A stretch of 43,420 nt of DNA from a virus, in the UHGV virus genome UHGV-1685692; one strand, 5' to 3'. Shown in pieces: positions 18,529-18,553 of the stretch. The first letter of the stretch is position 1. Each line of letters opens with the position of its first letter. The translations under genes were made by a program, and so were the position numbers. The notes under the pieces are model-generated. The model did no database searches, had not been told where the DNA came from, and saw nothing but the letters and a program-made list of their open reading frames with translations.

Positions 18529-18553
18529 GACTTTCAATAAAATCTCTTCCGAA
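18529..18553 (+). promoter_or_regulatory. candidate phage late promoter (conserved TGACT box, 5-nt spacer, -10 TAAAAT)
   Basis: agtcaaCAAGTGACT-ttcaa-TAAAAT; the same architecture recurs at 30504-30528 and 39112-39137 in front of structural operons. Confidence 0.4.

Follow-up and report, generated by a model that had tools for sequence, protein, structure and literature searches.

The window, that is the whole stretch of 43,420 bp that was analysed, belongs to a P1-like phage: a 3-kb probe around the first of the sites described below shares 94.6% identity with P1 and 99% with vB_EcoM-673R5, another P1-like phage, and the window has the opposite orientation to the P1 reference (NC_005856), covering roughly P1 76.3 kb down to ~34 kb. 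Three groups of virion genes are laid out on its plus strand, beginning with gene 23, which codes for the major capsid protein, with pmgC of the tail and baseplate genes pmgC-tub-pmgB-sit-pmgA-bplA-16 and with R, which like S is a tail-fibre gene; the S frame follows directly after R (39167) and is open through the end of the window. The proteins encoded after the three sites are 94–99% identical to their P1 counterparts. The tape-measure/transglycosylase ORF sit (32726–36466, plus strand) encodes 1246 aa in the window versus 1140 aa in P1. Each of the three groups is preceded, in a non-coding gap, by the same composite element, from which the start codon of the co-directional gene lies 31–52 nt in the 3′ direction. 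The elements, their parts and the start codons behind them are:

18524–18543, plus strand: element 1, CAAGTGACT-TTCAA-TAAAAT
18525–18533, plus strand: −22 box AAGTGACTT of the LP23 orthologue, a perfect AAGT-N-ACTT palindrome, equal to P1 58835–58843
18538–18543, plus strand: −10 hexamer TAAAAT of LP23, 4 nt past the box, matching 'minus_10_signal LP23' of P1
18595, plus strand: TTG start codon of gene 23
30509–30528, plus strand: element 2, CAAATGACT-ACTCG-TAGAAT
30510–30518, plus strand: −22 box AAATGACTA of the LPsit orthologue, equal to P1 46618–46626, '-22 region of LPsit'
30523–30528, plus strand: −10 hexamer TAGAAT of LPsit, 4 nt past the box, aligned with P1 LPsit
30560, plus strand: ATG start codon of pmgC
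39117–39136, plus strand: element 3, CAAGTTACT-TCTCT-TACAAT
39118–39126, plus strand: −22 box AAGTTACTT of the LPs orthologue, equal to P1 38328–38336, '-22 region of LPs'
39131–39136, plus strand: −10 hexamer TACAAT of LPs, 4 nt past the box, aligned with P1 LPs
39167, plus strand: ATG start codon of R

The aligned P1 late promoters give the consensus (A/G)AC-AAGTNACTT-N4-TANNNT, in which the 9-mer AAGTNACTT, mostly with AC in front, forms an imperfect palindrome (AAGT/ACTT) centred at about −22, and the hexamer occupies positions −13 to −8 when the box centre is set at −22. Placed from the box centre in this way, transcription would be expected to start at ~18551 (LP23), ~30536 (LPsit) and ~39144 (LPs). 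The initial annotation of this DNA, made from the raw sequence, had noticed the element in front of a head-protein candidate, a tail-assembly operon and a fibre operon, labels which agree with the capsid gene 23, the tail genes pmgC-tub-sit and the fibre genes R-S; its starting points of 18529, 30504 and 39112 were each off by ~5 nt, the actual ones being 18524, 30509 and 39117. Its box CAA(G/A)T(G/T)ACT followed by 5 nt describes the same element and takes in the conserved C, but is shifted by one base in the 5′ direction relative to the canonical box with its spacer of 4 nt. Upstream of LP23, the parS palindrome (18430–18462, plus strand) is followed by a T-run and has a terminator-like score, so that it could end transcription of the par operon before this promoter.

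All three sites align base for base with late promoters of P1, which are entered in the reference record as follows:

NC_005856 58825–58843: 'predicted late promoter LP23', aligned with the site at 18524–18543
NC_005856 46608–46626: 'late promoter LPsit', aligned with the site at 30509–30528
NC_005856 38318–38336: 'late promoter LPs', aligned with the site at 39117–39136 and noted as the earlier-identified promoter Ps

In the record, each promoter feature has two parts, a −10 signal and a '-22 region' of 9 bp, and the boxes of the window are identical to the annotated '-22 region' features; the geometry of activator-dependent P1 late promoters, which had been proposed for the three sites together with a comparison to the known P1 sequences, is thereby borne out. 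Eleven late promoters are found in the whole P1 record (mat, pro, lyz, dar, s, sit, 23, 26, pmgL, hot and pac), and as the part covered by the window contains, of these, just s, sit and 23, no annotated copy had been missed. From box to start codon the window equals P1 at LP23 and LPsit and differs in one spacer base at LPs, the same genes follow and the geometry is the same, leaving no difference of substance apart from a different 5′ flank of LPsit and the fact that the lpa gene and the lpa promoter map outside the window. The three elements are very probably late promoters of a P1-like plasmid prophage, namely LP23, LPsit and LPs, with their dependence on Lpa and SspA and their start sites taken over from the literature; as such they are already known features of P1, here rediscovered, and ordinary for a P1-like phage.

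How specific the element is can be judged from its frequency. The pattern CAARTKACT-N5-TANAAT, searched on both strands of the 43,420 bp, has exactly three matches, all on the plus strand and all in non-coding gaps, compared to 0.00 matches in 100 dinucleotide-preserving shuffles, which upholds the claim of the initial annotation of a recurrent element before three structural operons (three matches versus none expected). As this pattern was drawn from the very same sites, an independent test was run with a weight matrix trained on the six P1 late promoters without a counterpart in the window (mat, pro, lyz, dar, 26 and pac). With this matrix the three sites rank first, second and third of ~86,800 positions, the LP23 box on top, with scores of 23.4, 22.1 and 16.9 versus shuffle maxima that average 13.7 (95th percentile, 16.5). 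With a nine-promoter matrix, for which a score of ≥10 arises about once per 10,000 positions, a score of ≥15 is reached in the window only at these three sites. The box alone (9–11 bp, two mismatches allowed) is not clearly enriched, with 19 occurrences versus 11.5 expected and 5 of 100 shuffles reaching 19, and the specificity consequently lies in the combination of box and −10 hexamer at a fixed spacing. The weak enrichment of the isolated box would be compatible with chance, that is with an AT-rich −10-like hexamer recurring beside a short word without any common function. This reading, which has practically no probability left, is already refuted by the pattern count, the ranking by the independently trained matrix and the conservation in lineages with diverged flanks, and is equally at odds with the intergenic position of all three copies, in the correct orientation and at the stated distance ahead of start codons, and with their being annotated P1 promoters. 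One further matrix match (26621–26642, plus strand, score 12.5), antisense at the repL start and with the poor −10 hexamer CAGCAT, was judged to be a chance hit. Outside the window, P1 itself has two unannotated strong matrix matches on the minus strand, one inside gene 7 (76780–76801, score 21.6) and one 43 nt before lydB (30900–30921, score 18.2).

Several genes under Lpa control also carry sigma-70 promoters, as described in PMC8201110, and NC_005856 predicts sigma-70 promoters overlapping LP23 ('P1 23') and 5′ of LPsit. The sites might accordingly be regarded as ordinary sigma-70 promoters, constitutive or C1-controlled, with an incidental upstream box. A sigma-70 scan, however, finds no −35/−10 pair at any of the three sites, in accordance with the absence of a −35 stated in the initial annotation; on direct reading, the sequences 17 nt 5′ of the hexamers (GAAAGT, GACCTG and GCGGGG) are unlike TTGACA and a TG extended −10 is absent from all three. 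Furthermore, conservation across lineages falls on the box and not on a −35, and LPs and LPsit are recorded as late promoters and not as predictions, LP23 alone of the three being entered as 'predicted'. Taken together, ordinary sigma-70 promoters are a very improbable explanation, and late promoters of the P1 type the preferred one.

In P1, genes for late morphogenesis, packaging and lysis need Lpa according to the literature. Lpa (gp10) is described as a sequence-specific DNA-binding activator (Hansen et al., 2003, via PMC1891329) and host SspA as its co-activator on RNA polymerase which itself does not bind DNA (PMC1891329), and transcription is reported to start 7–9 nt past the hexamer, dependent on Lpa and on host SspA (PMC1891329; PMC10695390). 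As established for P1, Lpa is produced from a C1-repressed promoter and binds the palindrome at −22, where together with RNA polymerase-associated SspA it recruits or activates the sigma-70 holoenzyme and replaces the absent −35 contact. By analogy, derepression would turn on the capsid, sheath and baseplate operon 23-22-21-pmgG-bplB-pmgF, the tail tube, tape measure and baseplate operon pmgC-tub-pmgB-sit-pmgA-bplA-16 and the tail-fibre operon R-S-U. While identity with the P1 promoters, statistical specificity, position and orientation as well as conservation in diverged relatives are established for the sites of the window, their dependence on Lpa and SspA is presumed from the P1 literature. 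In the nearest complete relative (ON470615), Lpa is 100% identical to P1 Lpa.

Two diverged lineages at about 75–85% protein identity, Cronobacter phage JK004 and the Salmonella plasmid NZ_CP146848, in which the first genes of the late operons encode proteins with about 53–86% identity to P1, possess the box and the −10 hexamer at the same spacing before the orthologues of mat, prt, lyz, R, pmgC, 23, 26 and pacA, and the sequence 5′ of the box is unrelated, the flanks having diverged. Records at 60–90% identity number about 10 in a plasmid search. A scan of IMG/VR yielded relatives at 98–100% identity only, which consequently were used for polymorphism and the mosaic flank and not for covariation. 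Among 77 of these relatives, at least six unrelated upstream contexts meet LPsit, and as these join ~3 nt 5′ of the box, LPsit forms the edge of a conserved module beside a variable region. In the window, the stretch directly 5′ of LPsit (29299–30501, plus strand) holds, in the place of P1 simABC, two ORFs with functions that are not known, one of 224 aa belonging to phrog_3933 (with a weak match to PTP-like phytase) and one of 158 aa belonging to phrog_3429. A search of genome contigs with PmgC gave nine loci, among which the distant ones in Chimaeribacter, Citrobacter, Vibrio and Desulfovibrio are without a P1-type promoter before pmgC.

Phage D6 (MF356679) had been expected to share the P1 box, but the scan gave a different motif. 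As in P1, homologous operons (23, R, lydA, prt, gene 7 and pmgB) are each preceded by a recurrent box and a −10-like hexamer; unlike in P1, there is one strong match to the P1 box only, and the non-palindromic word AAATCACAnACT stands instead before the capsid, fibre, holin, portal, gene 7 and pmgB genes (copies, for example, at 54143, 38134, 31530, 25240, 45510 and 67412 on the minus strand and at 19216 on the plus strand). D6 also has no LPsit, with pmgC placed directly behind bplB. The absence of the P1 box fits its Lpa homologue being 31% identical to P1 Lpa, compared to 67% for JK004, where the boxes are kept. One copy of the D6-type word is present in P1, outside the window, before lydC (31590, minus strand). 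Replacement of the −35 contact of the sigma-70 holoenzyme by a phage activator is likewise found at the Ogr/B-dependent late promoters of P2 and 186 and the C-dependent late promoters of Mu, whose activators are unrelated to Lpa and bind at different positions, such as the P2 dyad near −55. To our knowledge, the requirement for SspA as a co-activator is specific to P1.

Besides the promoter itself, LPsit has an inverted repeat, which involves the following features:

30519–30529, plus strand: left arm CTCGTAGAATC of an 11-bp inverted repeat, consisting of the spacer, the −10 hexamer and one more base
30543–30553, plus strand: right arm GATTCTACGAG, whose 3′ end is the GAG of the GAGG ribosome-binding site
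30551–30554, plus strand: GAGG ribosome-binding site of pmgC, the right arm ending 6 nt before the ATG at 30560

The initial annotation had correctly seen a perfect inverted repeat here, described as 10 bp long and bracketing the leader. The repeat has 11 perfect base pairs, to which two G-C pairs are added beyond a bulged A, and it straddles the expected start; instead of bracketing the leader, it has the −10 hexamer and the spacer in its left arm. With the −10 hexamer there, the stem cannot sit in the leader of the late transcript and could form only in RNA begun upstream. Such RNA (30505–30565) folds with −24.1 kcal/mol (z −5.99), a value equalled by 0 of 200 shuffles, compared to −0.9 kcal/mol for the unstructured RNA from the expected +1 (30536–30565). 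The upstream ORF stops at 30501, 8 nt ahead of the box, with no terminator in between. A read-through transcript from the upstream genes would hide the pmgC ribosome-binding site in the stem, and a transcript begun at LPsit, deprived of the 5′ arm, would be translatable.

This arrangement resembles phage T4, where the late promoters of gene e and I-TevI are reported to belong to the 5′ arm of a stem-loop by which the ribosome-binding site is hidden (PMC3014915). As in T4 gene e, the 5′ arm at LPsit lies upstream of the expected late start, the 3′ arm contains the Shine-Dalgarno sequence and the stem would exist only in read-through RNA, and the same design is met at LPs of JK004 and of the Salmonella plasmid. 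On the other hand, T4 late promoters are read by gp55/gp33, those of the P1 type by an activator with sigma-70, and the translational effect has been measured in T4, while for the P1-like phage it is deduced from the sequence, with weak statistics beyond LPsit and LPs. It is a reasonable hypothesis that the LPsit hairpin might serve as a translational insulator in the manner of T4 gene e.

Across the 77 IMG/VR relatives the 11-bp core of the stem is invariant and the loop varies. In JK004 and the Salmonella plasmid the LPsit hexamer reads TAAAAT, with T in place of C at the opposite position of the stem, which amounts to one compensatory change from G-C to A-U; altogether 10 of 13 pairs are invariant, this is the one clean compensatory event, some pairs are G-U wobbles in the sense-strand RNA, and the covariation score, which rests on the one clean event, is reached by 10 of 500 shuffles. 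At LPs, JK004 and the Salmonella plasmid each show a 14-bp stem that is built in the same way but unrelated in sequence (z −4.1 and −4.9, respectively), and weaker stems of this type occur at LP26. At LPs of the window, a G+C-rich hairpin TCACCCCG...CGGGGTGA without a T-run follows the stop codon of gene 16 and precedes the LPs box (39092–39116, plus strand); it is found in P1 and is missing from JK004 and the Salmonella plasmid, which instead have the 14-bp stem across the LPs start. In NZ_CP146848 (~55190–55346), the LP26 orthologue and gene 26 are separated by an inserted hydrophobic ORF of 29 codons, whose own ribosome-binding site is complementary to the −7 to −2 region of the LP26 orthologue.

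Alternatively, the LPsit repeat might act as DNA, either as the operator of a repressor dimer over the −10 hexamer or as an intrinsic terminator that ends transcription of the genes before it. A perfect palindrome across a −10 hexamer has classical operator geometry, yet its arm centres are 24 bp apart and its loop varies from 9 to 13 nt, which is unusual for an operator. The compensatory change, from G-C to A-T in DNA terms, suits a DNA palindrome equally well, but the sense-strand G-U wobbles (in LPsit variants and, at the Salmonella plasmid's LPs, in the pairing of TAGAAT with ATTTTA) speak against it, as they would be A-C mismatches in DNA or on the other strand. Concerning termination, the end of the upstream ORF 8 nt from the box implies that read-through has to be handled; the stem, however, is followed by GTTTCAATG, without a T-run, and a terminator scan makes no call. 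Since, in addition, other late promoters have like stems of unrelated sequence, the end of which in every case falls in the ribosome-binding site, a function at the DNA level appears unlikely.

A weaker pairing of this kind can be drawn at LP23, where it involves:

18544–18550, plus strand: CTCTTCC, positions −7 to −1 of LP23, complementary to GGAAGAG (18583–18589) in the ribosome-binding site of gene 23

The read-through segment folds with −17.6 kcal/mol (z −2.57) and a paired ribosome-binding site, the segment from +1 with −6.3 kcal/mol (z −0.04) and a free one, and the cognate duplex of CTCTTCC with the ribosome-binding site ranks first of 11. The pairing would be present only in transcripts begun upstream, and a masking function is hypothesized. 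Separately, the LP23 leader (18563–18579, plus strand) includes a 7-bp hairpin, ACACAAG/CTTGTGT, with a second near-copy of the box, ACAAGTGCCTT, with one mismatch; this hairpin is not kept in JK004 or the Salmonella plasmid. When the accessibility of the ribosome-binding site was compared between long and short transcripts with the upstream 30 nt shuffled, the effect was not significant for any promoter, the share of shuffles that mask equally being 0.12 for LPsit, 0.22 for LP23, 0.28 for LPpac and 0.39 for LPdar. The cognate duplex came first in 11 of 33 cases compared to 3 expected, an overall marginal result (p = 0.045) with lineages that are not independent, and such pairing is absent in 6 of the 11 promoter families tested. 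Given the non-significant accessibility test, the general idea of an anti-Shine-Dalgarno sequence within late promoters stays hypothetical, backed mainly by LPsit and the LPs orthologues.

Mapping the late regulon from sequence, as the initial annotation had envisaged, is sound, has already been done for P1 with its 11 annotated promoters, and had in the present case passed over two weaker conserved copies:

11498–11519, plus strand: candidate weak late promoter cac-AAATAACCT-aagt-TAAAAT, 33 nt before upfC (GTG 11552), matrix score 12.6
12632–12653, plus strand: candidate weak late promoter aac-AAAGGACTT-catt-GATAAT, 19 nt before ppfA/mlp (ATG 12673), matrix score 12.8

Within unrelated flanks, both are found again in P1, in JK004 and in the Salmonella plasmid, equally far from the start codon (the upfC site also with the same spacing). 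The ppfA candidate directly follows the upfB stop, and its orthologues score higher (15.8 in JK004 and 14.3 in the Salmonella plasmid). NC_005856 annotates no promoter of any kind at the upfC site; for ppfA it predicts a sigma-70 promoter, P1ppfA, which is not the same as the candidate, and no late promoter. The upfC protein matches PAAR families and ppfA matches the Rz-like spanin family phrog_89 (E 1e-25), which makes both of them late in function. Tentatively, and with more doubt than confidence, it can be proposed that at least two extra weak Lpa-type promoters (upfC and ppfA/mlp) exist and that read-through from genes active in the prophage or early (sim, par, lpa) is translationally silent, as a P1 counterpart of T4 gene e.

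In recognizing the three elements, a textbook feature of P1 has been derived anew from raw sequence, which is a useful check that such a scan recognizes real regulatory grammar; three late transcription units of a P1-like element are hereby firmly annotated. What goes beyond the published annotation may at most be the two candidate promoters and the hairpins that straddle start sites. If the extra promoters are real, the Lpa regulon would reach the spanin genes and a PAAR tail-tip gene, and if the hairpins work as suggested, they would account for the silence, in the prophage and despite read-through, of late structural genes placed directly behind genes expressed in the lysogen or early (sim-like, par, lpa).
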